DNA of 64,000 nt, taken from the NCBI GenBank assembly GCA_026004495.1, contig BPJG01000001.1, positions 208,750 to 272,749 of the forward strand, given 5' to 3'. Of this stretch, positions 14,001-63,396 are shown one piece after another. Below the pieces are notes generated by a model, which saw only the letters and a list, made by a program, of their open reading frames with translations, was not told the origin of the DNA and made no database searches. The translations under genes and the position numbers were made by a program. The stretch comes from Candidatus Parcubacteria bacterium. GTDB lineage: Bacteria; Patescibacteriota; Minisyncoccia; UBA6257; HR35. Positions within the stretch are counted from its first letter, which is position 1. The number at the start of each line of letters is the position of its first letter.

Positions 14001-14248
14001 TAAATTGACGAATTATCTTCATCTAAACCAGTTAAATCATATAAAGGACCATCCAAATCAGGATTTTTTGCCAGGTTTAAATAGTTATTAATAGCTATTT
14101 CTAAAGCTTGTAAATCTCTTATTCTTTGTAAATCTCTATTTCTTTTGGCTACTTCAATAGGATTAACTAAATAAACAAACAAAGAGGTTAAAATAGCAAT
14201 CAAAGTTATAATAACTAAAATTTCAATTAAAGTAAAACCTTTTTTCAT
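11006..14248 (-). CDS. Giant pseudopilin-fusion surface protein (prepilin N-terminus, GspG-like domain, beta-propeller repeats)
   Basis: 1080 aa. N-terminus MKKGFTLIEILVIITLIAIL = class III signal peptide/prepilin motif (G|FTLIE). ~180 aa GspG-like domain shared with the neighbouring gene (NPDLDGP, GWLPINF, LPVDP, KNYFY). Remainder: repeated ~40 aa G/D/Y-rich propeller-like units. Confidence 0.75.
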   Translation of the reverse strand: MKKGFTLIEILVIITLIAILTSLFVYLVNPIEVAKRNRDLQRIRDLQALEIAINNYLNLAKNPDLDGPLYDLTGLDEDNSSIYISIPVDQSTFNFSTITDAYGNLWQIKQNSSATNVFNPNGEGWLPINFNENNQILPQLPVDPLNIINNSQPIKNYFYLYVFRRDARQFEVNANLESRVFKETKNQFSALTDGGSDEEILEVGNNKCLIAFGTSGSIIYGTTTLSSCQALKLNFGINYGNLMGQDICWNKLFNFYPTRNYVFRNKAGDYLVIGNNYLSSNTSSFLAIFLDKFGNPKFIKTIYLNTSSPLDLNYIHQLPDESYVLGYNLSDKSILIKTDKDFNPQWSRLYCSGSDCSAVQKLVFINNNFSGNINLIRNIGYYSGFQLVEISSSTGDILSGGDYYYQITFGRIYAGNKTQDDGFILLGSYGYMAVPPAFLAKFDNQNKIEWIKQYDNIAFSSYFSMDSPRNNYLFQTNDGGYFFNAMYDKSLNATSYIFVKTDYQGNLAWIKKYTGDYSTIDIRRIFQDKKNNFWLVVNSSSENYLIKLNQNFDKLTEYKITALSSNDRLVFNNFLQLDDNSYLLIGSFIDDSPFIAYLKKITKIIEAFGDDLKPEEFWFGFITKYYFNLIRFVSDKNLFYLKNNLYNITTTNIFSFSTISSPVSDISSFSTSNYNLTSTPLSLTSRVIKPNQKILVNQCDNYFSKNIGKNKKINKLIRADDGYVAVGEDLLINTSSFWIAKFDINGNIIVSSSSLMDPSYISHQFRSVIYDGNYFVTLGNYYQNDPVANSGYLAQFDSSLKLIMDNSFDSSYFSDITYDGINYIVVGRTNNNYGKIWLITSTTLKDISSINFALSSQFNSVLNQTNVFIFAGGEINNQSYLVKVKADLSYRWQKEYILKIGSRETIKKIIFADDGNIIALTNMFDPDDNRYKLILRKINPDDGEVIQEKLISNDYFYGNDIILDYDNNFLITGYLPLTQDGNNFSDWSLALMKVDKNFNLVWVKYYGGQSRDEISFGSSIVEADNAGYLIGGYNGALKGGWLLKVSYEGDCLGCSQLGFSNKIIDSFKNNLANFLNLILR

Positions 14249-17200
14249 TGATTAATTGTTATTGAATTAATTGTAATTGTAGGAATTTGAGATTCGTCCA
14301 GTCTAGGATCCCATTTAAGAATTATAAACATTTTAGAGCAAATTAGATTCAAATTATACAAACGATTTGATCCTTTTTGTAAATTATATTCTTTATCATC
14401 GCAAATAAATTTATATTCTTTTATTTTATCTTGATTATTATTCGTACTAGCATTAATATCAACAACATTAATAAACTTGGGAGGATCAATTACTTCAATA
14501 TAAATAGCATAATTTCTTGCTTTTTTACCTGTTTCTTTGCTACCCAAGAGGGTACTAGTAAAAGTTTCTCCTATCTCAAAAATTTGATTATCAGTAGTAA
14601 TTTTATAATACTTAAATTTTGCTTGTTTATTATACTTATCACCAACACCATCAATCGGCGTTGATGTTCCTTCACCTATCTCATTAATTGCTGAAATTGT
14701 ATAAGTTGCAGAGGTTGCTAAACTCATTAAATCAATATAATTTAAATTGTCTGGTGAATTGGTAGCAAGTAAAATATAATTACTTGAAGTTGCTCTATAA
14801 ATTCGGTATTCTTTTATTTTACCAAAACCAGCTTTGGAGGAATAATTTTCAATTTTATCAATTACTAACCAAGCACCAAAAGTTCCGGTTTGTCTAATTG
14901 AAAAACTTGGTTGGGGTAGTGTCAGAGCAGTTGTACAAATTTCATTACTTGGTAAACTTTCTCCATTAGGATAATTAGCTTTAACCACATAACAATAACT
15001 TTCGCCAGCTAAAAGATTATTATCAGTAAAAGAAAGAGTAGATGTATTTGTTGTTGCATATGGTGAATTACCATAACTACTTCCTTTAATTTTTCGATAA
15101 ATTGAATAATTTAACAATACGCTTTCACCAGCTGAAGCCCAATTAAGAGTAATAGAATTATTCCCTAAAGTATACCTTACATTTTGAGGCGGCAATTTAA
15201 AATAAAAACCAATAGAGTTATTACCTGAAGTTATTAAGGTACTTTGATTATTTATTGCTTTTATGAGATAGTTATTATTAGGTTTACTTTCGTAATTGTA
15301 ATCAATATAAGAAGTAGCGGTAGTGGTAACAATCTTGATTCCATTCCGATAGACAACATAATAATTAACACCGCTTACACCATTCCAAATTAGTTGAATT
15401 CCTGAATCGGAAGTATAACTAAGATTAGGAGAAATGGTTGACAATACACCCGAAAACAATGCTTGACACTTAACTAAGCTTTTATCACTTTCGCCAATTG
15501 AATTAAGTGCGGTAACATAATAACAATAATTAATTCCTTCACTTACCGAATTATCAGTATAAGAAGTAGCTGTTGTTGCAGCAATAAGAATAAAATTATT
15601 TATCTCATTAGTTGAGGTTGATCTATAAATTTTATAATACTGAATATTCTCACCACCATTATATTGAGGAAGTTGCCATTCAAGTACAATAGATAATGAA
15701 CCAGTCGAAATGCTTAAATCTACAGGAGGTGTTGGTCGTAATTTATCAGATGTTGTTGCTGAACAAAATTCATTGGAAAAATTACTAACAAAGAAAAATA
15801 AATGCAAACCACTTCGATAACAATTTTTACCAGATAAAGGACTAGTATCAGTTGCATAATTGCCAAAAATATTTGTTATGTAATTATAATTATCAGATGA
15901 AGTAGCCCGGTAAATATATACAAGAAAACTAGAAAGACTTCTTAAATAATCCAAAAAATTATCAATAGAGAGATAGTTATAATTAGCACCCGATCTTGAA
16001 AAAAGAGTATATCTTTTATCTATTAAATTAAATTCTGTAAAAAAAGATTTTTTAAATAAATCATTCACATTACAAACATTAGCTAAATTTTCATAATCAG
16101 GTAAAATTTTGGAAACGAAATTTAAACTATAATTTAAAACTTGAATATCGGGTGAATTGATTTTTAAATTCGATGAATAATGGAAAAAATTAGATGATAA
16201 AGCTGATGGACTGATAATATTAATTAAAAATCTTTGTTGGATATTACCTTTGTTAAATATATTAAAGACTGGATCACTACTTGAACTAATATTTAGTGCT
16301 AATTGTCTATAAGAAGATGGACCCGTTGTAAAATAATGAGAATTACCAACTATGAAATAATAATCATTAGAAGATATTTCTAAACCATAAAAATTATCAT
16401 TATTATACCAACCAATATTTTTAGCAAAAATTATCTCGCCTGTTGTCGAATTAATTTTCATTACCAAACCGTCATAATTTAGATTATTATATGAATTTGA
16501 TTTACCGATAATAATATAATTACCATCGTAATCTTTTTTAACCTTATAAAGATAGTCATCACCACCAGCTGAATATCTTTTTTGCCAAAGAATTTGACCT
16601 TGATTATCAATTGCAATAGCAAAAGGGTCGTAATGGTTAGCATCAAATTGACTATAGCCAAAAATTAAATAACCAGAAGAGGAGGTCGCGATTGCCATAC
16701 CAAAATCATTACCACCACTATCATAAATTTTTTGCCAAATTAATTTTCCTTCTCTATCTACTTTAATTAAAATCACATCATAATCTTTTCGAAAAGAATT
16801 GCTATAACCTACAATAATATATCCATTATCATTAGCTTTAATTAATCCTTGACCAACATCATTCTTTAGACCACCAAATGTTTTAAAAACTTTTATTACA
16901 CCATTATTATTAAAAAGCGAAAAAATAATATCGTTATCACCTTGACCAAAACTCGAAGAATAACCAGTAAGAATAATTTCATCGCCATCTAAAATTCCAG
17001 CAAATATTTTTTCATCTTTTTTACCACCAATTTTCTTTGACCAAACAGTATCAAATGTCGTCGAAGATATTCTTACCAACAGACCATCATAATTATTACC
17101 AGATTTTACTTGACCTCCCAAGATGAAATAACTGGATGAAGCAAGAATAAAATTAAAACTACTCTCATTGGTTGTACTTGAAATTTTAATAGCTTGAGGA

Positions 17201-20067
17201 TTGCCTAAAGAATCTAATTGATACAAAACACCATTGTAATTTTGATTATTCCATTCCCAACCAACAGTTAAATATTGATTATTGTTTTTAACAACATCAT
17301 TGAAATTATTATTTTTATTATTAGGAAGATAGATTTTAGCAAAACATTGCGAATTATAACGACCAACTATATTACTCTTAAAACCAAAACCATTTGCATT
17401 TTTAGCCTTAACATAATAGTAAATAGGTGTAGAAGCTGAATTATCTTGGTCAAGGTAGGTTAGTCCTGTTGTTGTAGCAAGTAATTGATAGGTAGATGTT
17501 GGTGTTGATGTTGCTTTATAAAGATAATATTCAGTGGTGGCTGCTCCTTCATCAGATATCGGTGGTTGCCAGTTAAGTTGAGTGTAGCTTTCTTGGGTTT
17601 CCCGAAAGTCCAAAGATAAAGGAAAAAGTGGTGTTGAATTCGGACTACCCATAACATAATTTGAAGGAATAGATTCTAAATCACAAAAATCGCCTGATAT
17701 TTTAGTAACATAATAATAATAATTCTTTCCATTGATTAAACCAGTTCGAGTAAAACTATTTGCTGGAGTTGTTCCAATAAGTTGATATTCATCGCCAGTT
17801 GACTCATAAATTGCAAAGGAGGGCTTAGTATCTTTAGCATCACCATCTTCCCAACTAAGACTAATTTTATTGACTAAAGATTGGAGACTTAAATTATTAG
17901 GAGATATACATTGGGTTCCAGGAGATGAACAATTTCCATAACAACCACTTTCAATATTACTTCTTTTGCTTTCGCCAATTGAATTAACAGCAGTAATATA
18001 GTAATAATAAGTAGTTTTAGAAGCAGTGGATAAATCATTATAGCTAGTAGCAGTAGTCGAAGCAATAAAAATATATTGAGAAGAAGTTGCTCGATAAATA
18101 TTGTAATAACTAACAGCTGAACCTTCATTAGAAAGAGGTGGTTCCCAAGTAAGACGAATACCATTAGCTAACGCTGAAGTCTGAAGTTTGCCGGGTGGTA
18201 TAGGATAACCTCGGGGAGTCGCAGAAACAGTAGTAGCATAATTAGAAACACCAAATTGATTTTTTGCTTGAATAGTATATTCATAAGTTTGTCCGTTAAT
18301 TAAATCTTGATGAGTGAATTGATAGCTATTTGTTGGAATAGCAGGAAATTCAAAAAGATAACGCCAATTATTTTCTCCGCTTAACCTGTAATAAAGTAAA
18401 TAAGAATCAATAACTGAACCACCATCATTGTTGGGATATTGCCAAGATAGGTTTATAGTTTTATTACCTGAAAAAGCTGAAAAATTAATTGGTGGTGAAG
18501 GATTTGTACCAGGGACAATGCATCGTTGTTGGCTAAAATTACTACTACCTACTTTATTAACAGCTTTAATTTTATAGCAATATTTTTGACCATTATTAAG
18601 ATTGGAATGTTGATAAACTAAAATATTATAACTTGTAGTTGCAATCAAGTTATCATTGTCATTATATATTTCATATCTAATTATTTCGCTACCACCATCA
18701 TCATCTGGTTTTAACCAAGTTATTACAATTTGCCCATCTCCAGGACTTAATTTATCAATAATAGGTGGTGAAGAGGTAGCAGTTATTTTAACATACACAG
18801 GTATAGTTATAGTTGAATCAGATTCAACTAAATAAATATTTTGCTTACAATAAAAATCTTGTTTAAATGATTTTAGCATTAAAGTAAATATTAAAGAAGT
18901 AGAAGAATAAGGATTTACGATAAAACTAGTTGGAGTGGAAATAACATAAGAAGGACAAGTCGTAGTTGTCTCTTTATAAAAAAAATCACGTAATTCAACT
19001 GATAGCTTTGAATCACCATTATTATAAATGATCAATTCATGGCTTACAGAGCTATCGGTTGTTTTTGCTTCTAAAATAGCAGTTGGGGGGTTAATTCTAT
19101 ATATTGGCGCGGCCGAAAAATTACAAGTTATATTTATTGAGTATGGATTGACTTTTTTAGGATCATTGTGCCAAATAAATAATATTGTTTCTGTTGTGGT
19201 TGCTGAAGTCAATGATCTACCATCACAAGTTAAAATAAGGGTTGTAGTATTATTGGGAGCAATAACAAAATTATTTTTATTTATTTTAAGCAATGAATTC
19301 TGGTTTGATTGAGTAATTTGATTAATTAATAAATAAGCTGTACCGGTATTATAAATATAAAGATAAGTAGAGGATGATTGAGAAATAGGGGCAGTTAAGA
19401 CTAAGGAGGTGGTATTAGTATTTAAAGACGGAAATGAAAGTTGATATTTACTATAACCATAAATTACTGGTGGAATAATATTTAAATCTGTTCCAACTTC
19501 AAAGGATTCGCTATCACCTCCATCACTTTTGGCAATTTCAATAAATTTAGGACATTCAAATTTAGCATTTAATTCATAAGATTTAGCTGATTTTTTAAAA
19601 GCATAAGAATAAAAATAATTTTTATTAAAAGAATTAATTGGATCTACTGGTAAAAGATTAATTGCTTTTTTTGATAAAGATAAAAAATTTATTGGTAACC
19701 AACCTTGGCCATTAATAAGCGAAGAAAGGGCAGTCGAAGAAGGTTGAATTATTAACCAATTTTTTCCTTCGAAACTAAATGAAGTTGAGGTTGATTCTTT
19801 ATCTTTAGGAATACTTATAAATATTGAGGAGCTTGATTCATCAAATCCAGAATTAGAAAAATAAGGACCATCTAAATCAGGATTATTTGTTTCCGAGAAG
19901 TAATGAGCAATCGCTGAATTTAATGAATTAAGGTCATTTATTCTCTGGGTATCTCGAGAGCATTTGATAATATCTAAAGGTTTAATTAAATTAATAACAA
20001 AAGTTGAAATTATACCCAAAGCTGATAAAACAGCAATTAATTCAATTAAAGTAAAACCTTTTTTCAT
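14245..20067 (-). CDS. Giant pseudopilin-fusion surface protein (prepilin N-terminus, multiple FN3 domains, beta-propeller repeats)
   Basis: 1940 aa. MKKGFTLIELIAVLSALGII prepilin N-terminus; paralogous GspG-like domain. At least 4-5 FN3-like modules (e.g. PSPPINFSAFSGNKTINLSWQYPNNDGGS...YEYTIQAKN). ~45 aa repeats (GG.NDxG..I...DGYII.GYS.S) typical of SBBP/DUF5122-like propellers. Overlaps the downstream paralog by 4 nt. Confidence 0.75.
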   Translation of the reverse strand: MKKGFTLIELIAVLSALGIISTFVINLIKPLDIIKCSRDTQRINDLNSLNSAIAHYFSETNNPDLDGPYFSNSGFDESSSSIFISIPKDKESTSTSFSFEGKNWLIIQPSSTALSSLINGQGWLPINFLSLSKKAINLLPVDPINSFNKNYFYSYAFKKSAKSYELNAKFECPKFIEIAKSDGGDSESFEVGTDLNIIPPVIYGYSKYQLSFPSLNTNTTSLVLTAPISQSSSTYLYIYNTGTAYLLINQITQSNQNSLLKINKNNFVIAPNNTTTLILTCDGRSLTSATTTETILFIWHNDPKKVNPYSINITCNFSAAPIYRINPPTAILEAKTTDSSVSHELIIYNNGDSKLSVELRDFFYKETTTTCPSYVISTPTSFIVNPYSSTSLIFTLMLKSFKQDFYCKQNIYLVESDSTITIPVYVKITATSSPPIIDKLSPGDGQIVITWLKPDDDGGSEIIRYEIYNDNDNLIATTSYNILVYQHSNLNNGQKYCYKIKAVNKVGSSNFSQQRCIVPGTNPSPPINFSAFSGNKTINLSWQYPNNDGGSVIDSYLLYYRLSGENNWRYLFEFPAIPTNSYQFTHQDLINGQTYEYTIQAKNQFGVSNYATTVSATPRGYPIPPGKLQTSALANGIRLTWEPPLSNEGSAVSYYNIYRATSSQYIFIASTTATSYNDLSTASKTTYYYYITAVNSIGESKRSNIESGCYGNCSSPGTQCISPNNLSLQSLVNKISLSWEDGDAKDTKPSFAIYESTGDEYQLIGTTPANSFTRTGLINGKNYYYYVTKISGDFCDLESIPSNYVMGSPNSTPLFPLSLDFRETQESYTQLNWQPPISDEGAATTEYYLYKATSTPTSTYQLLATTTGLTYLDQDNSASTPIYYYVKAKNANGFGFKSNIVGRYNSQCFAKIYLPNNKNNNFNDVVKNNNQYLTVGWEWNNQNYNGVLYQLDSLGNPQAIKISSTTNESSFNFILASSSYFILGGQVKSGNNYDGLLVRISSTTFDTVWSKKIGGKKDEKIFAGILDGDEIILTGYSSSFGQGDNDIIFSLFNNNGVIKVFKTFGGLKNDVGQGLIKANDNGYIIVGYSNSFRKDYDVILIKVDREGKLIWQKIYDSGGNDFGMAIATSSSGYLIFGYSQFDANHYDPFAIAIDNQGQILWQKRYSAGGDDYLYKVKKDYDGNYIIIGKSNSYNNLNYDGLVMKINSTTGEIIFAKNIGWYNNDNFYGLEISSNDYYFIVGNSHYFTTGPSSYRQLALNISSSSDPVFNIFNKGNIQQRFLINIISPSALSSNFFHYSSNLKINSPDIQVLNYSLNFVSKILPDYENLANVCNVNDLFKKSFFTEFNLIDKRYTLFSRSGANYNYLSIDNFLDYLRSLSSFLVYIYRATSSDNYNYITNIFGNYATDTSPLSGKNCYRSGLHLFFFVSNFSNEFCSATTSDKLRPTPPVDLSISTGSLSIVLEWQLPQYNGGENIQYYKIYRSTSTNEINNFILIAATTATSYTDNSVSEGINYCYYVTALNSIGESDKSLVKCQALFSGVLSTISPNLSYTSDSGIQLIWNGVSGVNYYVVYRNGIKIVTTTATSYIDYNYESKPNNNYLIKAINNQSTLITSGNNSIGFYFKLPPQNVRYTLGNNSITLNWASAGESVLLNYSIYRKIKGSSYGNSPYATTNTSTLSFTDNNLLAGESYCYVVKANYPNGESLPSNEICTTALTLPQPSFSIRQTGTFGAWLVIDKIENYSSKAGFGKIKEYRIYRATSSNYILLATNSPDNLNYIDLMSLATSATYTISAINEIGEGTSTPIDGVGDKYNKQAKFKYYKITTDNQIFEIGETFTSTLLGSKETGKKARNYAIYIEVIDPPKFINVVDINASTNNNQDKIKEYKFICDDKEYNLQKGSNRLYNLNLICSKMFIILKWDPRLDESQIPTITINSITINQ

Positions 20068-52419: not shown

Positions 52420-53586
52420 ATGGACTTATCTACCTTTGCAACATTGTTATTACTTTTATTTAACTTTTTACAAGCTACTCAGCAAATTAACATAGAACAA
52501 ACGCAAATTGAACAACCGCAAATTGAACAATCGCAAATTCCTCAGCAAATTAACATAAATCAACAAAATAATCAAGGAGGTAGTATTTTCCCAGCTGGAG
52601 GAGGAAATATATCTTCTACGGGAACAAATTATATTTATGTAATTGAACCATATATATTAGGTCCAACCGAAAATACTGGACTTGATTTGTCTCAGTTAAG
52701 AAATACACCCCTTAATTTAGAAGCAAATTATTACTGTTTAAATGGCTATCAGGGTTATATAAATAAAAATAATATTTATCTCTATAGAACTGAAACCTTA
52801 AGTGTTAATTGTCCTAACCCCTGGGTAGAGTTAAGATTAAATGGTTTTCTTTCTCGATATGTAAGATTAAAAAATTCTTCTACAATTGATCCTCAAGGAA
52901 TTGAATTTGTTTTAGGAGATACTAATAAAGACAATATAATAGATGATGCAGATTTGTTAAAAATATTATTTAGTCTTGATACAAGTATAGATGATTCTAA
53001 GTATGATCCTACAGCAGATTTGGACCAAAATGGAAAAATAACTCAGGATGAGCTATCTTGGCTTCAAAGATTTTTTGGTTATAAGGGAGAAACAAAGCCT
53101 TCCTTCTCTATTGAACCAATTTATTATTTAAGGCTAAATTTAGATGGCGTGGGTAATACAATTAATAGAGATATAAATATTAATTATCGCTGGCAGTGCG
53201 AAAATAGAAGGCTAGAAGGAAATGAAAATGGTTTAATTAACATTAGAACAAATTCTTATGTTTTTAATTTTAATTATTCTTCACTTAATTTATATGATTG
53301 TTATAGGCCAACAATACATTTTAGTGGATCTCCTTTCCTTCTTACCGAGGATAAGATATTATCTTCTATGGATCCCAATAATCCTGATAATATAACTTTA
53401 ATAAATGGCGATATAGATGGTAATAGTATTATCGATGATGCTGATCTTTTAAAGGTTTTATTCAATTATGGGAATAATAATGATGATGCCTTAGAAGCTG
53501 ATATAAATTTTGATGGTATGGTTAATGACGAAGATTTAGAAATAATAAGAAGAAATTTTGGCAAAGGAGTTTTGGGAAGAGGATAA
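52420..53586 (+). CDS. Secreted Q-rich protein with two dockerin-like repeat pairs
   Basis: Signal peptide; QIEQPQIEQSQ repeats; GDTNKDNIIDDADLLKILFS / DLDQNGKITQDELSWLQRFFG and GDIDGNSIIDDADLLKVLFN / DINFDGMVNDEDLEIIRRNFG; shares YYLR..L.G block with the divergent neighbour. Confidence 0.6.
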   Translation: MDLSTFATLLLLLFNFLQATQQINIEQTQIEQPQIEQSQIPQQININQQNNQGGSIFPAGGGNISSTGTNYIYVIEPYILGPTENTGLDLSQLRNTPLNLEANYYCLNGYQGYINKNNIYLYRTETLSVNCPNPWVELRLNGFLSRYVRLKNSSTIDPQGIEFVLGDTNKDNIIDDADLLKILFSLDTSIDDSKYDPTADLDQNGKITQDELSWLQRFFGYKGETKPSFSIEPIYYLRLNLDGVGNTINRDININYRWQCENRRLEGNENGLINIRTNSYVFNFNYSSLNLYDCYRPTIHFSGSPFLLTEDKILSSMDPNNPDNITLINGDIDGNSIIDDADLLKVLFNYGNNNDDALEADINFDGMVNDEDLEIIRRNFGKGVLGRG

Positions 53587-53591
53587 ATTTT

Positions 53592-55367
53592 TTAAACCTT
53601 AATTATCACAGGTATTACCACTGGTCTTCTTTGGGTTTTTCGATATAGAAATTGCGAAATTTCCTCCTTTAATGAATATTTAATTTGTTCTTCTTGAATA
53701 ATAGGTGCTTCATCTCCTAAATGTTTAGTATTTTTAATAACTATATTTTTAGCTAAAGTTCTTACTTCATTTAATAAATCTTTTGATTCCTTAAGAAAAA
53801 CAAAGCCACGAGATATTATATCGGGACTAGTTTTAATTTCTCCAGTTTGAGAATTTAAGGTAATAATAATTACAAACATACCTTCTTCAGCTAATGCTTT
53901 TCTATCTCTTAAAACTAAATCGCCAACACTACCTAAGCCTAAGCCATCAACATAAACTAAATTAGCAGGAATTTTTTCATCTGTTAATTCTATTTTATCA
54001 TTAAACATTTTAACCACTTGACCATTAGAAGCAATGATAATTTTTTCTTTGGGTATACCTAAATCTATGCCAATTTCTTCAATTGCCTTCATCATAAAGT
54101 AATGTCCATGGACGGGCATGATATAATTTGGTTTAGATAAATTAATAAATAGCCTAATATCATCAGCAAAGGCATGACCGGAGGCATGAATATCCATCAT
54201 TTGATAATGAAATATTTTAGCTCCCTGTTTTGTTAAGATATCTTTTAAATTTTGGATAATTCTTTCATTGCCAGGAATAACTGAGGAAGAAAAAATTACT
54301 GAATCATTATTAATTATTTTAAAATAACGATGCTCTTTATTAGCAATTCTCATTAAAGCTGAACCTTCTTCAGCTTGAGAACCAGTACAAATAATTAAAA
54401 CTCTATGAGGTGGTAATTTAAAAGATTCTTCGGGTCTAATAAAAATACCTTTATTATATTTTAAATAACCAAGTCTTTTAGCTACCTCAACATTAATTCT
54501 CATCGTATGTCCATCAATAACAACTCTTCTTCCATATAGACCAGCTAAATAAATTAATTGTTGAATCCTTTCTAAAAGAGAAGCAAAGGTAGAAGCAATA
54601 ATTCTTCCTTTAGCTTTTTTAAATACCTCCTCAAGATTTTCCATTATTTTTCTCTCAGAAATAATGTGTCCCGATTCTGGAGCATTAGTTGAGTCAATCA
54701 TTAATAAATCAACACCTTCATGGGACAATTTAACTATTCTTGATAAATCAGCAGGTTTATCAAAAAAGGGAGTAAAGTCTATTTTGAAATCACCAGTATG
54801 GAGAATATTTCCTATAGGAGTTTTGATAAAAAACCCAATAGAATCTGGTATATTATGATTAACATGGAAATAATCGATCATAAAATCTCCTAACTTAAAT
54901 GGAGTATAGTTTTCTTTTTTTATTTCATAGATTTCTAATTTTTGCAATCTAGGGAAATCTTCCTGTCTTTTTATAATCAATCCCTTGGTTAGAGGAGTAG
55001 TATATATTGGAGGATAATTAAGTTTATCAATAATATAAGGAATAGCTCCGATATGGTCGTAATGACCATGGGTTATTAATATCCCCAAAATTTTATCTTT
55101 TTTTTCCTCCAGATATTCTATATTAGGAATAATATAATCAACCCCTAACATATTTTCCGATTCTGGATAACCTAAACCAGCATCTAAAATTACTATTTGT
55201 TCTCTACCTTTATCAGGACACCATTCAAAAACCGTCATATTTCTTCCTACTTCTTCTAAGCCTCCTAATGGTATTATTTTTAAAGAACCATTAACCGTTT
55301 CTTTTTTTATTTTTTTAGGATTTCTTTTAATTAAAATTTTTTGCTCAACGTTTATTTTGCTATTCAT
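53592..55367 (-). CDS. rnj: Ribonuclease J
   Basis: Metallo-beta-lactamase HxHxDH (THGHYDHIGA), beta-CASP layout, 591 aa. Confidence 0.85.
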   Translation of the reverse strand: MNSKINVEQKILIKRNPKKIKKETVNGSLKIIPLGGLEEVGRNMTVFEWCPDKGREQIVILDAGLGYPESENMLGVDYIIPNIEYLEEKKDKILGILITHGHYDHIGAIPYIIDKLNYPPIYTTPLTKGLIIKRQEDFPRLQKLEIYEIKKENYTPFKLGDFMIDYFHVNHNIPDSIGFFIKTPIGNILHTGDFKIDFTPFFDKPADLSRIVKLSHEGVDLLMIDSTNAPESGHIISERKIMENLEEVFKKAKGRIIASTFASLLERIQQLIYLAGLYGRRVVIDGHTMRINVEVAKRLGYLKYNKGIFIRPEESFKLPPHRVLIICTGSQAEEGSALMRIANKEHRYFKIINNDSVIFSSSVIPGNERIIQNLKDILTKQGAKIFHYQMMDIHASGHAFADDIRLFINLSKPNYIMPVHGHYFMMKAIEEIGIDLGIPKEKIIIASNGQVVKMFNDKIELTDEKIPANLVYVDGLGLGSVGDLVLRDRKALAEEGMFVIIITLNSQTGEIKTSPDIISRGFVFLKESKDLLNEVRTLAKNIVIKNTKHLGDEAPIIQEEQIKYSLKEEISQFLYRKTQRRPVVIPVIIKV

Positions 55368-55406
55368 TTTTTATATTTTGACAATATATACTTAACGACC
55401 TTTATT

Positions 55407-55493
55407 TGCCGAGGGCCGGATTCGAACCGACACGGACTTATAAAATCCATAAGTTTCTGAAACTTATGCGTCTACCAATTTCGCCACCTCGGC
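55407..55493 (-). tRNA. tRNA-Leu (anticodon CAG)
   Basis: Reverse complement GCCGAGGTGGCGAAATTGGTAGACGC...anticodon loop TTCAGAA...long variable arm...GGTTCGAATCCGGCCCTCGGC A; 87 nt class II tRNA. Confidence 0.8.
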
Positions 55494-55512
55494 TAATTAA
55501 AATTATTTAACA

Positions 55513-55917
55513 TTAATCAAGAATAAAAATTCTTAAGTTTTGTAGGTTTTGATTATTTTTCTCTACCTGAAAATTAAATCTTAATTCAAATGGTTGATTT
55601 ATAAACTTGCTAACAATATTACCAGAAATATTTCTGCTTTCAGGATTAATTTCATTTAAGCTAAAAAAAGAGTTTATATCATTAATAATAAAAGATTTAT
55701 TTGTTGGTTGTAAATAATCATTTAAAAAAATTTCTTGAAGTGCCATATTAAGAATTGATAATTGTGAATATAGTAATCGTGCATTACTAACAATAGATTT
55801 AGAAAAATTATTTTCTTTAACTAAAATTATCCCAAATAGAATTAAAATGCTAAAACTTAATAAAAAAATAACAATTATAAAAACGAATGTTGCTTGACCT
55901 TTATTTAAAAACTCCAT
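55513..55917 (-). CDS. Small pilin-like membrane protein
   Basis: 134 aa; N-terminal KGQATFVFIIVIFLL hydrophobic segment after Gly; last of three consecutive small N-terminally hydrophobic genes. Confidence 0.4.
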   Translation of the reverse strand: MEFLNKGQATFVFIIVIFLLSFSILILFGIILVKENNFSKSIVSNARLLYSQLSILNMALQEIFLNDYLQPTNKSFIINDINSFFSLNEINPESRNISGNIVSKFINQPFELRFNFQVEKNNQNLQNLRIFILD

Positions 55918-56366
55918 AAATATAAAGTAGATGTTAAATTTAATGTTTGATTATTATTTGAATTTGATATCTTAATAAAAACATTATAAAAATCTGAATT
56001 AGATGAAACATCAAAATTATTAACTTTAATATTATCAGAGGTAAATTTTGTCGAAGTTACTTCATTTTCTAAATAAATTTTTTCATTTAATAGATATAAT
56101 TTTTCATAACCTTCAGGATAAAAATTAAATTTTATACTACTTGAAGTTATTTCTGTTGAAATGGCTGAAATTGAATTAAAATAAAGTCTATTTATAATTC
56201 TAAAAACATCATTTCTTAAATTTAGTTTATCCAAATATATAGAAGAATAAAATGTTATACCATAAAAAATTATCGTTGTCAAAACACCCAAAATACTAAT
56301 TATTGAAATATAAATAATTAATTCTATTAAAGTAAAAGATTTATTGTGATAATTCAATTTGGCCAT
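55905..56366 (-). CDS. Pseudopilin (type IV pilin-like), start trimmed to internal Met
   Basis: MAKLNYHNKSFTLIELIIYISIISILG: prepilin-type motif (xFTLIEL with Glu at +5). Confidence 0.55.
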   Translation of the reverse strand: MAKLNYHNKSFTLIELIIYISIISILGVLTTIIFYGITFYSSIYLDKLNLRNDVFRIINRLYFNSISAISTEITSSSIKFNFYPEGYEKLYLLNEKIYLENEVTSTKFTSDNIKVNNFDVSSNSDFYNVFIKISNSNNNQTLNLTSTLYLWSF

Positions 56367-56856
56367 TAATTTTAATATTCTCAGATTTATTATTGTATTG
56401 ATTAATAATTCCACTTGAGGCGTCGACAATGCTATCGGTAGCCACCTCCCAACTATCTTGAATAAAAATCAACTCCTTAATATTTGTAATTTTCAAAGGA
56501 AAGCTATAAATATCTTTAGATGTTTGAATATAAACATTTAAGCTATCATCAGTTATTTCAAACCAACGGTAATAACCATTAAGATAATTATCTTTACCGA
56601 CTTTAATTTCATAATTATTATCAAAATAATAGGGTTGATTTTTTAATAAATTTTCAAATTGTGAATAATTTTTCCTTGCTATACCTAAAACAATACTTTG
56701 ATAAGATAAGGCTGAATTATAAATAATAATAGATTTATCAGCATTTTCAATTGATTGGGGAATTATATTAAAAATTAAAAATATTATCAAAGAAAGAAAA
56801 GATAAGATAAGAATACCTGTTAAAACTTCAAGTAATAATTGTCCATTATTTTGCAT
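56341..56856 (-). CDS. Pseudopilin (type IV pilin-like)
   Basis: MQNNGQLLLEVLTGILIL: Gly then hydrophobic helix with Glu at +5. Confidence 0.55.
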   Translation of the reverse strand: MQNNGQLLLEVLTGILILSFLSLIIFLIFNIIPQSIENADKSIIIYNSALSYQSIVLGIARKNYSQFENLLKNQPYYFDNNYEIKVGKDNYLNGYYRWFEITDDSLNVYIQTSKDIYSFPLKITNIKELIFIQDSWEVATDSIVDASSGIINQYNNKSENIKINGQIELSQ

Positions 56857-56860
56857 AAAT

Positions 56861-58990
56861 TTATTTTTTTATTCCCTGTTTATTGCTAATAATATTATCA
56901 AAAAGATATTGAGGTACTTCTTGATAATTGTAAAATTCCATATAACTAAAACCTCTACCTTGGGTAAGAGATCTCAAAATTGTAACGTAGCCAAACATTT
57001 CAGCTAGAGGAACTTTAGCTAAAATTTTCTTAAGTTCACCTACATCTAAAACTTCTTCTATTTTTGCTCTTCGACTTGCTAAATCGCCAGTAATATCACC
57101 TAGAAATTCTTGTGGAGTAAAAACTTCTAATTTCATTATTGGTTCTAAAAAGATAGGATTTGCCTTTTTAACTGCATCTTTAAGAGCTATTTCAGCCGCA
57201 ATTTTAAAAGCTAAATCAGAAGAGTCGACCTCATGAAATGATCCATCAAAAAGAGTAATTTTAATATCTGTTAGGGGATAATTAGCTATAACTCCTTTTT
57301 CTATTGTTTCCCTTAATCCCTTTTCTATAGCTGGTATAAAATTATCTGGAATAATTCCACCCTTAATAGCATTAACAAACTCAAAACCTTTATTTCTTTC
57401 TAATGGATCAACCTTAATAACTACATGGCCATATTGTCCCCTACCTCCACTTTGTCTAATGTATTTTCCTTCTGCTTCTACTGTTTTAGTAATTGTTTCT
57501 CTATAAGCTACCTGAGGCATACCCACATTTGTTTCTACCCTAAATTCTCTTCTTAATCTATCAACCATAATTTCTAAATGTAATTCTCCCATTCCGCCAA
57601 TAAGAGTATCGCCTGTTTCTGGATCAACTTTAATTTTAAAAGTAGGATCTTCATCGGTTAAAGCTTTTAGGTAAATACCCATCTTTTCTTGATCTTGTTT
57701 AGTTTTAGGTTCAATTTTTAACCAAATTACAGGTTCATTGAATTTTATTGATTCGAACATAATAGGTGTTTTGGGATCGCAAATAGTATCACCGGTTTTT
57801 AAATTTTTAACTCCAACTATAGCTCCTATGTCTCCAGCAAATAATTCTTCTATTTCCTCTCGTTGATTAGCATGCATTACAACCAATCTTCCAACCCTAA
57901 ATGATTCATTTGTCCTAGTATTTAAAATTACATCACCTCTTTTTAGAACTCCAGAATAAACCCTAACATATGTTAGGGTTCCTACAAATTGATCAATTGC
58001 CAATTTAAAAATAAGAGCAGAAAATGGTTCATTGTCTGATGGTTTTAGAATTATTTCGCTATTAGTTTTAGGATCAAATCCTCTAACCTCTTCTAAATCT
58101 AGGGGTGAAGGTAAAAAATCAACTACGCCATCTAAAACCAATTGAACTCCTTTATTTTTTAAAGAAGAGCCACAATAAACAGGTATAAATTGATACTTTA
58201 TACAAGATTGCCTGATAGCTGAGCGTATATCAGATTCAGTAAAATTATCTTCTAGGTATTTATTCATAAATTCTTCATCCACTTCAGACAATTTTTCTAA
58301 CATTAATTTTCTATATTTTTCTGCTTCACTAATTAAATTATCTGGAATGGGCTTTCTAATAACAATTTCTCCTTTTTCCCCTTGAAAATCAACAATTTCC
58401 ATTCTGATTAAATCAATTAAACTACTAAAGTTTTCTTCTATGCCAACCGGAATAACTACTGGAATTGCATTTTTAGTTAACCTCTCATTGATAGACTTCA
58501 AAGAATCTTCAAAACTAGCACCCATTCTGTCAAGTTTATTAATAAAACATATTCGAGGAACATTGTATTTATCTGCTTGATGCCAAACAGTTTCTGATTG
58601 AGCTTCAACTCCTTGAACACCATCGAAAACTACAACTGCACCATCAAGAACCCTAAGAGATCTCTCAACTTCAGCTGTAAAATCTACATGTCCTGGTGTA
58701 TCTATAATATTAATCTTATATTCTTTTTGAATATTTTCTTCCTTAGTTTTAGACTTTTCCAAATAGCTTGGCGACCAAAAACAGGTTACCGAAGCTGCAG
58801 TAATTGTAATACCTCTTTCTCTTTCTTGGGGCATCCAGTCTGTTATAGTTGTTCCTTCATGAACTTCTCCAATCTTATGAGAAACTCCAGTATAATATAA
58901 AACTCTCTCAGTTGTCGTAGTTTTACCTGCATCAATATGAGCGATAATTCCAATATTTCTCGTTTTTTCAAGAGGATATAATCTTCCCAT
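56861..58990 (-). CDS. fusA: Elongation factor G
   Basis: G-domain AHIDAGKTTTTER, DTPGHVDF, NKLD; 709 aa; str operon context. Confidence 0.93.
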   Translation of the reverse strand: MGRLYPLEKTRNIGIIAHIDAGKTTTTERVLYYTGVSHKIGEVHEGTTITDWMPQERERGITITAASVTCFWSPSYLEKSKTKEENIQKEYKINIIDTPGHVDFTAEVERSLRVLDGAVVVFDGVQGVEAQSETVWHQADKYNVPRICFINKLDRMGASFEDSLKSINERLTKNAIPVVIPVGIEENFSSLIDLIRMEIVDFQGEKGEIVIRKPIPDNLISEAEKYRKLMLEKLSEVDEEFMNKYLEDNFTESDIRSAIRQSCIKYQFIPVYCGSSLKNKGVQLVLDGVVDFLPSPLDLEEVRGFDPKTNSEIILKPSDNEPFSALIFKLAIDQFVGTLTYVRVYSGVLKRGDVILNTRTNESFRVGRLVVMHANQREEIEELFAGDIGAIVGVKNLKTGDTICDPKTPIMFESIKFNEPVIWLKIEPKTKQDQEKMGIYLKALTDEDPTFKIKVDPETGDTLIGGMGELHLEIMVDRLRREFRVETNVGMPQVAYRETITKTVEAEGKYIRQSGGRGQYGHVVIKVDPLERNKGFEFVNAIKGGIIPDNFIPAIEKGLRETIEKGVIANYPLTDIKITLFDGSFHEVDSSDLAFKIAAEIALKDAVKKANPIFLEPIMKLEVFTPQEFLGDITGDLASRRAKIEEVLDVGELKKILAKVPLAEMFGYVTILRSLTQGRGFSYMEFYNYQEVPQYLFDNIISNKQGIKK

Positions 58991-58999
58991 TTTTATTAT

Positions 59000-59500
59000 T
59001 TAGTTTATTTTTTTCTTAGATTTACGACCCCACCAGGCAAAATGAGCAAAAGCTTTATTGTTTTCAGCTTGTTTTTGAATCTCTATTTTTCTTTTAATGG
59101 CATCGCCTTCATTATTATATGCAGCAATAATTTCTTCACCTAATCTAACATACATAGGTTTGCCCTTTTTATTTCTAGCTGATTCAACAATCCACTTAAC
59201 AGCTTTATAAAAACGCCTATCTGGATTAACAACCCTAGGAACCAAATAGCTAGCACCTGCTATTTTTCTTGGCCAAACTTCTACTACAGGCATAACATTT
59301 TTTAATGCCTGTTGAAAAACCTTAAAGCCATCTGAACCTGTTTTTTCTTGAATATAATTTATGGATGAATAGAAAATCTTCTGAGCTTTTATTTTTTTAC
59401 CATCTTTCATTATATTATTTACAAATCTAGTTGCAGCAATGCTATTATATATAGGATCAGCTTGCCACTTTTTTTTAATAGTTATTCTTCGTCGAGGCAT
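59000..59500 (-). CDS. rpsG: 30S ribosomal protein S7
   Basis: 166 aa; MPRRR N-terminus; str operon order S12-S7-EF-G. Confidence 0.9.
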   Translation of the reverse strand: MPRRRITIKKKWQADPIYNSIAATRFVNNIMKDGKKIKAQKIFYSSINYIQEKTGSDGFKVFQQALKNVMPVVEVWPRKIAGASYLVPRVVNPDRRFYKAVKWIVESARNKKGKPMYVRLGEEIIAAYNNEGDAIKRKIEIQKQAENNKAFAHFAWWGRKSKKKIN

Positions 59501-59910
59501 TATTTTTCTTTTTTAGTGCCATATAATGAGCGTCCCTGTTTTCTTCCTTCTACTCCCTGAGTATCATAAACACCCCTAACAATATGATAACGAACACCTG
59601 GTAAATCTTTTACCCTACCTCCTCTAACTAAAACAATTGAGTGCTCTTGTAAATTATGACCAATTCCGGGAATATAAGCAGTTACTTCTTTGCCATTACT
59701 TAATCTAACTTTAGCAACTTTTCTTAAGGCAGAATTTGGTTTTTTAGGGGTCATTGTGTAAACTCGAACACAAACTCCTCTTTTAAATGAAGAAGGTCTA
59801 TATTTTTCTTTTTTTTTCAAAGAATTAAATATATACAAAAATGCAGTAGCTCTCTTTTTAAAAACTCTTTTTTGTCTTCCTTTTCTGATTAATTGATTAA
59901 TTGTCGGCAT
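59500..59910 (-). CDS. rpsL: 30S ribosomal protein S12
   Basis: [14 protein letters not shown]-terminus; 136 aa; start-stop overlap with rpsG. Confidence 0.92.
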
Positions 59911-60071
59911 ATTTTAAAAAAATTTTTTTATATAACAATAAAAAATTGTCAAATTTTAAAGACATTTTTTTATTTTTAAAATTGAAAGTCTTTAATTTTT
60001 ATAAACTTTCTTAAGTTCTTTAATTTATTTATTATAAATAAAGAAAAATAAAAAATCAAGAATTCTATATT

Positions 60072-61319
60072 TTAAATATTTTTTAATAAATATTTAAAGG
60101 CACTTAAACTAGTTGAGATTATTAAATAATTTTTATATATTGTCCATATTATCTTGTAATCATTATCAAAGTAAAAAATTTTATAATCTACATTTTCAAT
60201 TTTTTCGGTTAAAGAAAAATTCCTGATTAAATTTCCTTGGGGTAAAAATGAAAATATTGTTTTAATTAAATCTTTAGCTAATGTTTCTTTGTCCCATAAT
60301 CTCATAAAGGTAACTATCTGAAAATCATTAGTTATTTTGAATAATAATAAGGGAAATTTTCTAGTATGAGTATAATAAATTAAAATATAACAATCATTAT
60401 CACTTAAACTACTTTTAAAGCTATCAATAAATTTTTCTTCAATAAAAGAAGGTTTTAAAAAGTAATTTTTAATAAAAAAACAGCTTAGTGGTTCATTATT
60501 GAATAAAAAATTAATTTTATAAATCTCACCAGCTCTTTTTTGATAATTAAATAATTGTTTAAAAGATTGAGTTAAGCTTTCGTCATTAAGTTCCTTAAGA
60601 TTTACTTCTAATTCAAGAAAATTTAAATAGATAAAGCCATGGTCCTTATTTTGATTAGTTATTTCTTTTATGCCTACATCTAAAATTTGATTTTTATTAG
60701 GAGAAGCAACTTCGTTAGTTGAAGTATCCTGAGTAGAATTTATTTCGGACGAGGTAACTTGACCAACAACAGAGGATGTATTTTTATTATCATTTTTAAA
60801 AAATACGGTAATTAAATTAAGTTCATTTGAGTTTGTTGTTTTATTTTCTAATAATGTATTGGTATTAGATATTGTATTAGTTGATATCGTGGATGTAACT
60901 AATTGTTGATTTGATAAATTATTTTGTGATTGAGTATTAGTATTAGAAATAGTCAAGTTGGCAGAGGCAGTATTAAAATCTAAGGTTGATGTCTCAATAT
61001 AAGAAACCTTAAGATCTTTGGTAAAAATCTCATAAATATCTTTTCTATCATCTTTATCAGCATTTAATCTATCTGATTTATTATTTTTATAAATTAAAAA
61101 ATAATAAACCGATGATAGGCCACCTATAATGAAAATTAAGCCCAAAATAATAATAAAATAAAACTTAGGATTCTTTATTAATTTACCTTTGGTTTTTTTT
61201 ATATTTTCCTTTTCTATATTTTCCAATAGAATATTAGGGCTTTTTTCTTTATCTTGTTTTGAATCTTTTTTCAAGCCAGAGCTTATGATTTTAAATTTTA
61301 AATTTTCATTATCTTCCAT
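60072..61319 (-). CDS. Hypothetical membrane protein (S/T/N-rich extracytoplasmic region)
   Basis: 415 aa; basic N-terminus, one TM, T/S/N-rich low-complexity middle, C-terminal globular part. Confidence 0.5.
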   Translation of the reverse strand: MEDNENLKFKIISSGLKKDSKQDKEKSPNILLENIEKENIKKTKGKLIKNPKFYFIIILGLIFIIGGLSSVYYFLIYKNNKSDRLNADKDDRKDIYEIFTKDLKVSYIETSTLDFNTASANLTISNTNTQSQNNLSNQQLVTSTISTNTISNTNTLLENKTTNSNELNLITVFFKNDNKNTSSVVGQVTSSEINSTQDTSTNEVASPNKNQILDVGIKEITNQNKDHGFIYLNFLELEVNLKELNDESLTQSFKQLFNYQKRAGEIYKINFLFNNEPLSCFFIKNYFLKPSFIEEKFIDSFKSSLSDNDCYILIYYTHTRKFPLLLFKITNDFQIVTFMRLWDKETLAKDLIKTIFSFLPQGNLIRNFSLTEKIENVDYKIFYFDNDYKIIWTIYKNYLIISTSLSAFKYLLKNI

Positions 61320-61347
61320 TTATATAAATTTTTAAAAGATATTTTTT

Positions 61348-63396
61348 TTATTCATTTACTAAACTAACATATAATCTACCATCTTCATTAATTTTTTTAA
61401 TCCTTACCTTAACTATTTTGTCAATCGTATAATTATTAACTTCATTTTTAGGAATATCAGAAATATGAAGTAGGGCGGTTTTATTTAAACCTAAATCAAT
61501 TATAAAACCAAAATCTAATATTTTAACAATCTTACCCTCAAAAACATCATTGATTTTAGTATTATTAGTTGATAATTTTATTAGATTAATTGTTTTTTCA
61601 AGAGAATTTTGATCAATTGCTGTTATATAGACAGTTCCATCTTGTTTAATTTCAATTTTACTATTAGTTAAAGATATTATTTCATTTATATTCCTTCCAC
61701 CCGGTCCAATTAATAAACCAATATTATCAGGATTAACCTGATAAATCATAGCCCTAGGAACATTATCTTTCAATTCTTTTCTTGGCTCTTTAATTACTTC
61801 ATTAAATTTTTCCAAGATGAATAATCTAGCTAATTTTGCTCTTTCCAAACTTTGTTTAATAATTTCTATATTTAAACCTTCAATCTTAACATCTAGCTGA
61901 ATAGCTGTAATTCCCTTTGAAGTGCCAGCAACCTTAAAATCCATTCCTCCCCAAAAATCTTCAACCCCTTGAATATCAGTTAATAACTCATAATTTTGAT
62001 CATTTTGATAAACAATTCCTATACTAATACCTGCACACTTATTTTTTAGGGGCACTCCAGCATCTAATAAAGCTAAAGTTGAAGAACAAATACTACCCAT
62101 TGAGGTTGAACCATTAGAGGAAAGTATATCAGAAACTACTCTTATAGTATAAGGAAAATCTATTTCACTAGGTATTAAATTTTTAAGAGCCTTCTCAACC
62201 AAATTACCATGACCTATTTCTCTTCGCGATGGTGACCTAAGTGGTCCTATTTCACCAGTTGAATAAGGAGGAAAATTATAATGGTGTAAAAATCTTTTGG
62301 TACCTTCGAATTCTATTTCTCTAATTAATAAATCATCAGATGGAGAACCTAGGGTAACTGTTGATAAAACATGAGTTAGGCCTCTTTTAAAAATTGCTGA
62401 ACCATGAGCCTTGGGTAAAATATTAATATCAAAATCTATTTTTCTAATTTCATCACTTTTTCTACCATCTGGTCTAATTTTTAACTTTAAGATATTATTT
62501 TGAAAAATTAAATTAATTTTCTCTAAAACTCCTTTATAGACATAATCGAAGTTTTCAATGTTATCCCTTTCAGTTTCTAATATTTTAAAGATTTCATCAA
62601 TATTTGGCTTTTCTTTGTTGTTAAATATAAAATCTTCCAAATTAATATTAAATTTTTCTATAAACTTTTCTCCATAAGACAAGTAAGATTCTAAAAATTC
62701 TTCCTCTAAAGTAGGTTGGTATTTATTTTTAAATAAGCTAGATATCCTTTTATAAAGTTGATTTATCTTATCAATTGCTAAACTTAATGATTTAATAACA
62801 TCGTCTTCTAAAATTTCTAAGCCTTCAAATTCTATCATATTAATTTTATTTTCGATACCAGAGACGAAAATATTAAAATCACTAAATTTTTTTTCACTTT
62901 CCCTGGGATAAAAAATAAATCTATCTTCAAGCTTACAAATCTTTACCGGAATAACTGGTCCTAACCATTTATAACCTAAAAGATGAAAACCAATCGAAGA
63001 GCCTAAAAAGGCTAAAATATCAGGATCAAATTCAGGATCAAGAGATAAAACAGTATTAACAATTTGAATTTCATAGGGAAACTTTTTGATTGCCGATCTA
63101 AGACCTCTGTCAATTAATCTTGAATTTAAAATAGCTGTTTCTGAAGGCTTACCTTCTCGCCTAAAAAATCGACTCCCATAAATCTTACCCGCAGCATAAT
63201 ATTTTTCATCATAATCAACTGTTAAGGGAACAAAATCTATATTTTGTTTTTTTTCTCCAATAACAATCGTAGTTAAAACTAAGCTATCAAGACATTTTGT
63301 TAATAATGAAATATTAGCTCTTTGAGCCCAGTCATTAATTTCTAATTCAATATCAATTTTCCTAGATTCATCAAGGGTTATTAAAAATTTTTCCAT
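61348..63396 (-). CDS. pnp: Polyribonucleotide nucleotidyltransferase (PNPase)
   Basis: 682 aa; two RNase PH-like cores, KH (GxxG: IGPGGRNINEI) and C-terminal S1 domain. Confidence 0.88.
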   Translation of the reverse strand: MEKFLITLDESRKIDIELEINDWAQRANISLLTKCLDSLVLTTIVIGEKKQNIDFVPLTVDYDEKYYAAGKIYGSRFFRREGKPSETAILNSRLIDRGLRSAIKKFPYEIQIVNTVLSLDPEFDPDILAFLGSSIGFHLLGYKWLGPVIPVKICKLEDRFIFYPRESEKKFSDFNIFVSGIENKINMIEFEGLEILEDDVIKSLSLAIDKINQLYKRISSLFKNKYQPTLEEEFLESYLSYGEKFIEKFNINLEDFIFNNKEKPNIDEIFKILETERDNIENFDYVYKGVLEKINLIFQNNILKLKIRPDGRKSDEIRKIDFDINILPKAHGSAIFKRGLTHVLSTVTLGSPSDDLLIREIEFEGTKRFLHHYNFPPYSTGEIGPLRSPSRREIGHGNLVEKALKNLIPSEIDFPYTIRVVSDILSSNGSTSMGSICSSTLALLDAGVPLKNKCAGISIGIVYQNDQNYELLTDIQGVEDFWGGMDFKVAGTSKGITAIQLDVKIEGLNIEIIKQSLERAKLARLFILEKFNEVIKEPRKELKDNVPRAMIYQVNPDNIGLLIGPGGRNINEIISLTNSKIEIKQDGTVYITAIDQNSLEKTINLIKLSTNNTKINDVFEGKIVKILDFGFIIDLGLNKTALLHISDIPKNEVNNYTIDKIVKVRIKKINEDGRLYVSLVNE

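Follow-up and report, generated by a model that had tools for sequence, protein, structure and literature searches.

The str operon in its canonical form reads rpsL-rpsG-fusA-tuf. In the 64-kb stretch of Candidatus Parcubacteria bacterium DNA that was analysed here (hereafter the window, meaning the whole of that stretch), rpsL, rpsG and fusA are intact and contiguous as well, but tuf is not found behind them; three small genes, here called A, B and C, stand there instead, followed by a tRNA-Leu gene and rnj. A first-pass annotation, made from the sequence alone, had placed three small overlapping genes directly after rpsL-rpsG-fusA on the same strand and had proposed that they encode minor pilins that prime a filament. 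Our analysis bears out the coordinates (Table 1), and the arrangement raises the question of whether the proteins that initiate pili share their expression with translation factors. In Patescibacteria, type IV pili are regarded as the chief organ of contact with the host, but most of their minor pilins lack annotation.

Table 1. Positions in the window of the genes of the rpsL-to-rnj block and of the two giant prepilin genes. A slash marks the boundary between the predicted leader and the mature protein.
Feature	Positions	Strand	Product or basis of assignment
rpsL (ribosomal protein S12)	59500-59910	minus	ORF; orthologs in relatives with Pfam Ribosom_S12_S23
rpsG (ribosomal protein S7)	59000-59500	minus	ORF; orthologs in relatives with Ribosomal_S7
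fusA (EF-G)	56861-58990	minus	every EF-G Pfam domain present, E 7.6e-63 and below
gene A (KatS3mg094_254, annotated 'hypothetical')	56341-56856	minus	171 aa; predicted prepilin MQNNG/QLLLEVL...
gene B (KatS3mg094_253)	55905-56366	minus	153 aa; predicted prepilin MAKLNYHNKS/FTLIELII...
gene C (KatS3mg094_252)	55513-55917	minus	134 aa; MEFLNKG/QATFVF..., Glu5-less, pilin-like
tRNA-Leu(CAG)	55407-55493	minus	ARAGORN; Rfam tRNA 57.7 bits
rnj (RNase J), last gene of the block	53592-55367	minus	Pfam RNase_J_b_CASP, RNase_J_C, Lactamase_B
two giant prepilins	11006-20067	minus	1080 and 1940 aa; MKKG/FTLIE...; fn3 x5

On the minus strand the features follow one another in the order rpsL, rpsG, fusA, A, B, C, tRNA-Leu(CAG) and rnj. 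Four nucleotides separate the fusA stop from the start of gene A, the A/B and B/C overlaps measure 26 nt and 13 nt, and the tRNA begins 19 nt past the gene C stop; for gene B, the start was taken as the ATG at 56366, as in its orthologs. The window comes from a metagenome-assembled genome of Minisyncoccia, and its gene A is identical to KatS3mg094_254, whose contig measures 634 kb. The rpsL product is 93% identical in amino acid sequence to its counterpart in one relative (L087), and an Rfam scan of positions 53000-61500 returned the tRNA as its sole match. Searches for an EF-Tu motif or ORF (tuf) found none in the 64-kb window and none in any locus of the clade, and no PilB, PilC, PilD, PilM/N/O or small major-pilin gene was detected within the window.

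The entire block rpsL-rpsG-fusA-A-B-C-tRNA-Leu-rnj proved to be kept in 12/12 of the related Parcubacteria/Minisyncoccia genomes examined, while the genes flanking it on the rpsL and rnj sides are reshuffled from genome to genome across the clade. The five closest relatives, collected with fusA as the anchor and one genome per species (L001-L004 and L006; fusA 70-85% identical), all have fusA-A-B-C-tRNA-Leu-rnj, and the same block is present on seven further contigs that were reached via homologs of gene A (L081, L083, L085/L086, L087, L089). Across the clade fusA and gene A overlap by as much as 32 nt or lie up to 26 nt apart, and in 8/8 relatives scanned a tRNA-Leu(CAG) follows gene C, at distances from 1 nt of overlap to a gap of 52 nt. 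Purifying selection acts on A, B and C, yet they evolve faster than the neighbouring genes: their clade-wide identities are 18-71% (down to ~18-25% for A and C) versus 70-87% for EF-G, and in comparison with KatS3mg095 the dN/dS values, obtained with dS near saturation, are 0.13 for A, 0.25 for B, 0.19 for C and 0.08 for fusA.

That tuf normally comes after fusA, as the first-pass annotation had assumed, is true but soft in this phylum, where the linkage of the two genes is loose. Among the 56 fusA loci whose downstream sequence extends 1.5 kb or more, tuf is adjacent in 22, lies 0.7-5.9 kb downstream in 15 and is missing in 19, five of which belong to clade members; outside the clade (n = 51), 14 loci show no tuf downstream and 15 carry insertions of 0.7-5.9 kb. 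In distant Patescibacteria (fusA at most 62% identical) and in Nitrospira, tuf is mostly the next gene after fusA. Outside the clade, pilin-like genes follow fusA at none of the loci, and the block as a whole, present in 12/12 clade genomes, is absent from all 75 other fusA loci retrieved, which makes it a possible synteny marker for the clade. A more general association between pilins and the str operon was considered and rejected, since pilin clusters upstream of the operon turned up only in L027 and L039, and two of ~50 Patescibacteria loci is consistent with chance. The literature that we searched contained no paper tying fusA to pilin genes in the Candidate Phyla Radiation (CPR, Patescibacteria), and as far as that literature shows, the operon context is new and the machinery is of a known kind.

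The first-pass annotation had ascribed to all three proteins a prepilin signature composed of Gly at -1, a hydrophobic helix and Glu at +5, and an inspection for class III leaders upheld this in part. The signature is complete in A (NNG/QLLLE, with Gly-1 and Glu5); B keeps Glu5 and has Ser, not Gly, at -1 (NKS/FTLIE); C, with Gly-1, lacks the Glu at +5 (KG/QATFV). The hydrophobic tract of ~21 residues that is expected after the cleavage site is present in all three. Among homologs, Glu5 occurs in 58/58 members of the A family, 29/29 of the B family and 0/41 of the C family, and F-T-L-x-E is invariant in the B family. The residue at -1 is distributed as G49/A7/S1 in A, G19/S7/A3 in B and G38/A2 in C, the Ser-1 of gene B being that of the window's subclade (7 members), with Gly-1 in 19/29 members of the family. 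Strom and Lory are said to have reported in 1991 that Ala and Ser are the sole partly tolerated substitutions at this position. The Ser/Ala-1 minority (8/58 in A, 10/29 in B) departs from the rule for bacteria, Gly at -1 being termed 'absolutely critical' for processing in a review (PMC4471445), and raises the question of how strict the clade's prepilin peptidase is at this position. A six-frame motif scan of the 64 kb returned just four Glu5-prepilin-like ORFs, namely A, B and the two giant genes.

Gene B passes the Pfam N_methyl model (PF07963; 24.4 bits vs a cut-off of 21.2) and stays under that of TIGR02532 (11.0 vs 16.3). A profile of its orthologs matches the N-terminal helices of type IV pilins in the PDB at E 1.5e-6, and the source records call these orthologs PulG, GspH, PilE or 'prepilin-type N-terminal cleavage/methylation domain'. 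Judged by its sequence, gene B is a bona fide N_methyl prepilin whose nearest relative is ComGF. Neither N_methyl model (PF07963 or TIGR02532) matches A or C, and PDB sequence profile searches with A and with C gave nothing relevant. The locus thus offers both N_methyl similarity, in B, and conservation among relatives, in 12/12 genomes; with four prepilin-like ORFs in the window, this positional conservation and dN/dS values of 0.13-0.25, the trio is beyond chance.

The A family comprises 59 homologs and the C family 47. An exhaustive search of 1.84 billion representative proteins with the C-family profile yielded just 26 clusters. The C family is therefore small and restricted to a lineage, and A and C alike are sequence-orphan families confined to one clade. 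When the A, B and C families were compared with hhalign, their N-termini alone aligned, weakly and in register; by that comparison the three are not recognisable as paralogs outside the N-terminal helix. Beyond the helix they carry accessory modules: a Trp-rich insert of ~150 aa in most members of the B family, an extra C-terminal domain of ~170 aa in the C proteins of the L002/L004 subclade, and a C-terminal tail of ~45 aa in the A proteins of the window's subclade. Modules that shift in this way among A, B and C from subclade to subclade fit tip-exposed proteins. A search for the Trp-rich module of the long B orthologs ('GYAWNDxxGWISF') covered the giant proteins and a six-frame translation of the window and turned up no copy.

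With respect to structure, the AF2 models of A and C consist of a long alpha1 helix and an antiparallel sheet, the lollipop fold of pilins, in which a helix of ~50 residues packs on the sheet, and the closest structural matches are the type II secretion system (T2SS) proteins GspK and GspI, GspI being the best for A. It might be argued that A and C are instead ordinary single-pass membrane proteins with an N-terminal anchor and no role in a pilus, which would leave B as the only pilin. The lack of any Pfam or NCBIfam match above threshold and of any PDB sequence match for the two proteins can be cited in favour of this, as can, for A, a Foldseek search of the PDB that came back empty (no match below E 0.49); we nevertheless hold it to be highly improbable.

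The search with curated minor-pilin profiles did not assign the three proteins, as no GspI/J/K, ComGE/F/G or PilX model was reached at its cut-off by A, B or C. The hints that lie below the cut-offs follow the gene order, with A pointing to ComGE, B to ComGF and C to ComGG. The best curated match of A is ComGE (E 0.02-0.5), a model on which the top score among the proteins was 14.7 vs a cut-off of 49. For B the most frequent NCBIfam match is ComGF (16/29 members, best E 1.9e-5, under the 80-bit cut-off), and weak, likewise sub-threshold matches to ComGE, ComGD and gspJ were also obtained. Two remote members of the C family score 22.0 and 17.5 bits on Pfam ComGG, vs a cut-off of 25, and one C ortholog matches NCBIfam ComGG_2 at E 6.5e-3 (best 17.1 vs a cut-off of 40).

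As the best of these matches, for A, for B and for C with its remote relatives, all fall on minor pilins of the Com pilus, the trio could be part of a Com-type DNA-uptake pseudopilus, in which its members would be the equivalents of ComGE, ComGF and ComGG, rather than part of an adhesive or motility type IV pilus. Such a role is also favoured by the dependence of Patescibacteria on scavenging and by their being treated as monoderm-like. However, every one of these matches lies below its family cut-off, the closest structural matches are GspK and GspI of the T2SS, no comGA/GB/GC or comEC gene lies nearby, and pilin mutants in T4P-2 retained wild-type competence in the one Patescibacterium tested (PMC11623550); on balance we consider a Com-type pseudopilus unlikely. 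Still less probable, in our estimation, is that gene A encodes the major pilin and was placed right after fusA for high expression, with only B and C as minor pilins. Gene A does come directly behind fusA and is under the strongest constraint within the trio (dN/dS 0.13), and the window holds no small gene that could otherwise fill that role, but its mature N-terminus starts with Gln and not Phe, it has no N_methyl HMM match, its best structural match, GspI, is a minor pseudopilin, and its C-terminal tail differs between subclades; moreover, one relative has a separate 122-aa N_methyl gene after rnj that is more like a major pilin.

We suggest that the trio encodes pilin-class proteins of the type IV kind, which together make up the core complex of minor pilins that initiates the organism's type IV filament and sits at its tip, a reading to which we would assign a probability of roughly 0.65. 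In proposing a minor-pilin priming complex, the first-pass annotation had arrived at what remains the best-supported interpretation: B passes Pfam N_methyl and matches pilin helices in the PDB, and both the gene order and the Glu5 pattern (+, +, -) are those of PilI-J-K, that is, three consecutive overlapping genes with a K-like member that lacks Glu5, in 12/12 genomes. An overlapping polycistron that encodes first a small pilin with Glu5, next another Glu5 pilin, frequently with an insert, and last a Glu5-less pilin bears the signature of a core minor-pilin initiation complex. Type II secretion systems and type IV pili are described as almost always keeping pilI, pilJ and pilK syntenic in that order, and polymerisation is proposed to be licensed by the trimer (PMC13533445). 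GspK and ComGG are placed at the tip, and their lack of Glu5 is attributed to each being the first, apical subunit; the assembly of pili depends on ComGG (PMC8727766). Nearly all Patescibacteria have type IV pili (T4P), and those of TM7x drive host binding and motility (PMC11623550). In every genome the neighbours of the trio are rpsL, rpsG, fusA, tRNA-Leu and rnj, with no major-pilin or assembly genes alongside. Counting against the reading are the lack of pilus-machinery and small major-pilin genes in the 64 kb, the curated-profile scores under cut-off and the Ser at -1 in gene B.

It is plausible, on this assignment to an initiation complex, that A is PilI/GspI/ComGE-like, B is PilJ/GspJ/ComGF-like and C is a PilK/GspK/ComGG-like cap. 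Each of the three would be inserted into the membrane by its N-terminal hydrophobic helix, and its short leader would be cut off by a prepilin peptidase encoded elsewhere. Lacking Glu5, C would need no subunit above it and could therefore cap the filament, and A and B, each with Glu5, would dock under C. The A-B-C trimer may then template, or prime, the addition of the major pilin, whose gene would lie elsewhere, and perhaps that of large modular pilins as well. The orphan families of A and C, until now 'hypothetical', can thereby be named probable PilI- and PilK-type subunits, whereas our understanding of how type IV filaments work is unchanged by these results.

Candidates for such large modular pilins are the two giant proteins encoded at 11-20 kb, which in the motif scan are the only prepilin-like genes of the window besides the trio. 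They match Pfam N_methyl weakly, at residues 2-24, and fn3 at E 6.7e-41, and possibly they are cargo or partner pilins of the trio.

As for expression, it is plausible from the layout of the genes that A-B-C are co-transcribed with rpsL-rpsG-fusA and translationally coupled to fusA; co-transcription is the simplest reading because the junctions are too short for a terminator and a promoter. No terminator-like site was found on the minus strand, including the fusA-A junction. The position of tRNA-Leu right after C, followed by rnj, suggests one long transcript punctuated by tRNA processing. At the 26% GC found throughout the window, the scan for promoters and terminators is uninformative and compatible with an internal promoter, the 37 promoter-like sites being at background frequency (31.9 +/- 4.8 in shuffled sequence).

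The trio may be a true minor-pilin set that came to lie behind fusA as a neutral consequence of the rearrangement which separated fusA and tuf, with a promoter of its own and a linkage devoid of functional meaning. The fusA-tuf linkage is often broken in Patescibacteria, as the non-clade loci without tuf or with insertions attest (14 and 15 of 51), a block with overlapping start and stop codons would be hard to separate once fused, and within gene A, at 56790-56762, there is a promoter-like match at 11 of 12 positions. Nevertheless, the block persists in 12/12 genomes despite fusA identities down to 70%, A and C identities of ~18-25% and reshuffled flanks, the fusA/A junction is too short to hold a promoter and a terminator, and promoter-like sites are no commoner than in shuffled sequence; we regard a neutral origin as possible though doubtful. 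Should the embedding be functional instead, coupling of the trio to fusA in the rpsL-rpsG-fusA transcript, with the tRNA and RNase J as its 3' end, would have starter complexes made in fixed proportion to the translation machinery. The episymbiont would then start pili constitutively, as a housekeeping activity tied to growth rate, and a prepilin peptidase tolerant of Ser or Ala at -1 would be in keeping with it; we put this idea forward as speculative and rather unlikely to hold in full.

Among characterised systems, the job proposed for A-B-C is that of the GspI-GspJ-GspK tip complex of the T2SS (ETEC, PDB 3CI0; XcpV-W-X, PDB 5VTM). Here, however, no gspI/J/K HMM is matched at cut-off, a fourth, GspH-like gene is missing, the neighbourhood encodes neither a major pseudopilin nor an ATPase, and the host is a Patescibacterium without a T2SS context. 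GspK, moreover, contains an alpha-domain insertion of ~180 residues that gene C (134 aa) lacks, so that C, if PilK-type, is an unusually minimal Glu5-less cap. In the competence pilus of Firmicutes, the three genes for ComGE, ComGF and ComGG close their polycistron in the same order and encode similarly small proteins, and ComGG of Firmicutes, like gene C, has no Glu5; in that polycistron, however, comGA-GB-GC-GD precede them, whereas A-B-C are preceded by rpsL-rpsG-fusA. In type IVa pili, PilI/PilV, PilJ/PilW and PilK/PilX have the same proposed role, that of an initiation complex which ends up at the tip. Whereas type IVa pilus systems and that of TM7x differ from this locus, where no PilY1/PilC-type adhesin or pilus machinery is adjacent, the minor pilins of the Saccharibacteria TM7x (PMC13533445, PMC11623550) resemble the A, B and C families in that their accessory domains vary.

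Apart from the three pilin-like genes A, B and C that follow fusA, the window carries two giant prepilin genes, which overlap each other on the minus strand and whose products are alike over their N-terminal ~200 residues. Length also varies among the orthologs of gene B, as those of ~300 aa (e.g., L003 8548-9474 and L006 8589-9524, from the fusA loci of two clade relatives, and proteins P0107-P0124) hold an insertion of ~150 aa, in which three Trp-rich repeats of the type GYAWNDxxGWISF are accompanied by conserved Cys residues. A Pfam search of this insertion gave no match, and the 153-aa B protein of the window is without it.

Pilin genes also occur near the str block (the rpsL-rpsG-fusA region) in some other genomes. 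One Magasanikiibacteriota MAG and one Uhrbacteria MAG (L027, L039) have 3–4 canonical prepilins clustered 2–6 kb upstream of fusA, and single N_methyl genes are found at the clade loci L081 and L089. We consider the proximity in these four loci to be probably a matter of chance.

Features of the window and of related loci (coordinates without a locus prefix refer to the window)
Feature	Coordinates or loci	Strand	Position or character
rplK	142-564		after nusG
nusG	565-1113		directly after coupling-protein ATPase
VirD4/TrwB/TraG-like type IV coupling-protein ATPase, 811 aa	1225-3660	-	immediately upstream of nusG-rplK
Giant prepilin, 1080 aa	11006-14248	-	canonical MKKG|FTLIE start
Giant prepilin, 1940 aa	14245-20067	-	canonical MKKG|FTLIE start; five fn3 domains
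Secreted-looking protein, 388 aa	52420-53586	+	just downstream of rnj, opposite strand
tRNA-Leu, anticodon CAG (reads CUG)	55407-55493	-	right after gene C
Single-pass membrane protein, 415 aa	60072-61319	-	between pnp and rpsL
Canonical prepilin cluster	L027 43-3620		upstream of fusA
Canonical prepilin cluster	L039 155-2050		upstream of fusA
N_methyl+Laminin_G_3 gene	L081 1034-2218		immediately upstream of rpsL in KatS3mg096
N_methyl gene, 122 aa	L089 11686-12054		directly following rnj
Small conserved ORF	L012, L016, L018, L020, L023, L031, L034, L045, L050		just downstream of fusA

In KatS3mg093 (L083 1-2667), rpsL-rpsG-fusA is immediately preceded by the last genes of the spc operon (rpsE-rplO-secY-adk), which suggests a rearrangement between the str genes and the tuf-S10-spc cluster in the clade. 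In many other Patescibacteria, a small conserved ORF of 73–135 aa, sharing the motif ..VV.EDGKP.YVV.., is present between fusA and tuf.

In and around the clade block, the tRNA-Leu(CAG) directly following gene C is kept in all clade loci, and CUG codons should be rare in the clade genomes of ~26% GC that carry it. In the secreted-looking protein beyond rnj, the N-terminal repeat is rich in Gln and Ile, and two calcium-binding repeats are of the dockerin-type/EF-hand-like kind. At the other end, the membrane protein had no match in a Pfam search, and its position is conserved in the clade loci L001 (415 aa) and L087 (396 aa). Elsewhere in the window, the coupling-protein ATPase is an odd neighbor for the core transcription/translation cluster of a reduced genome.
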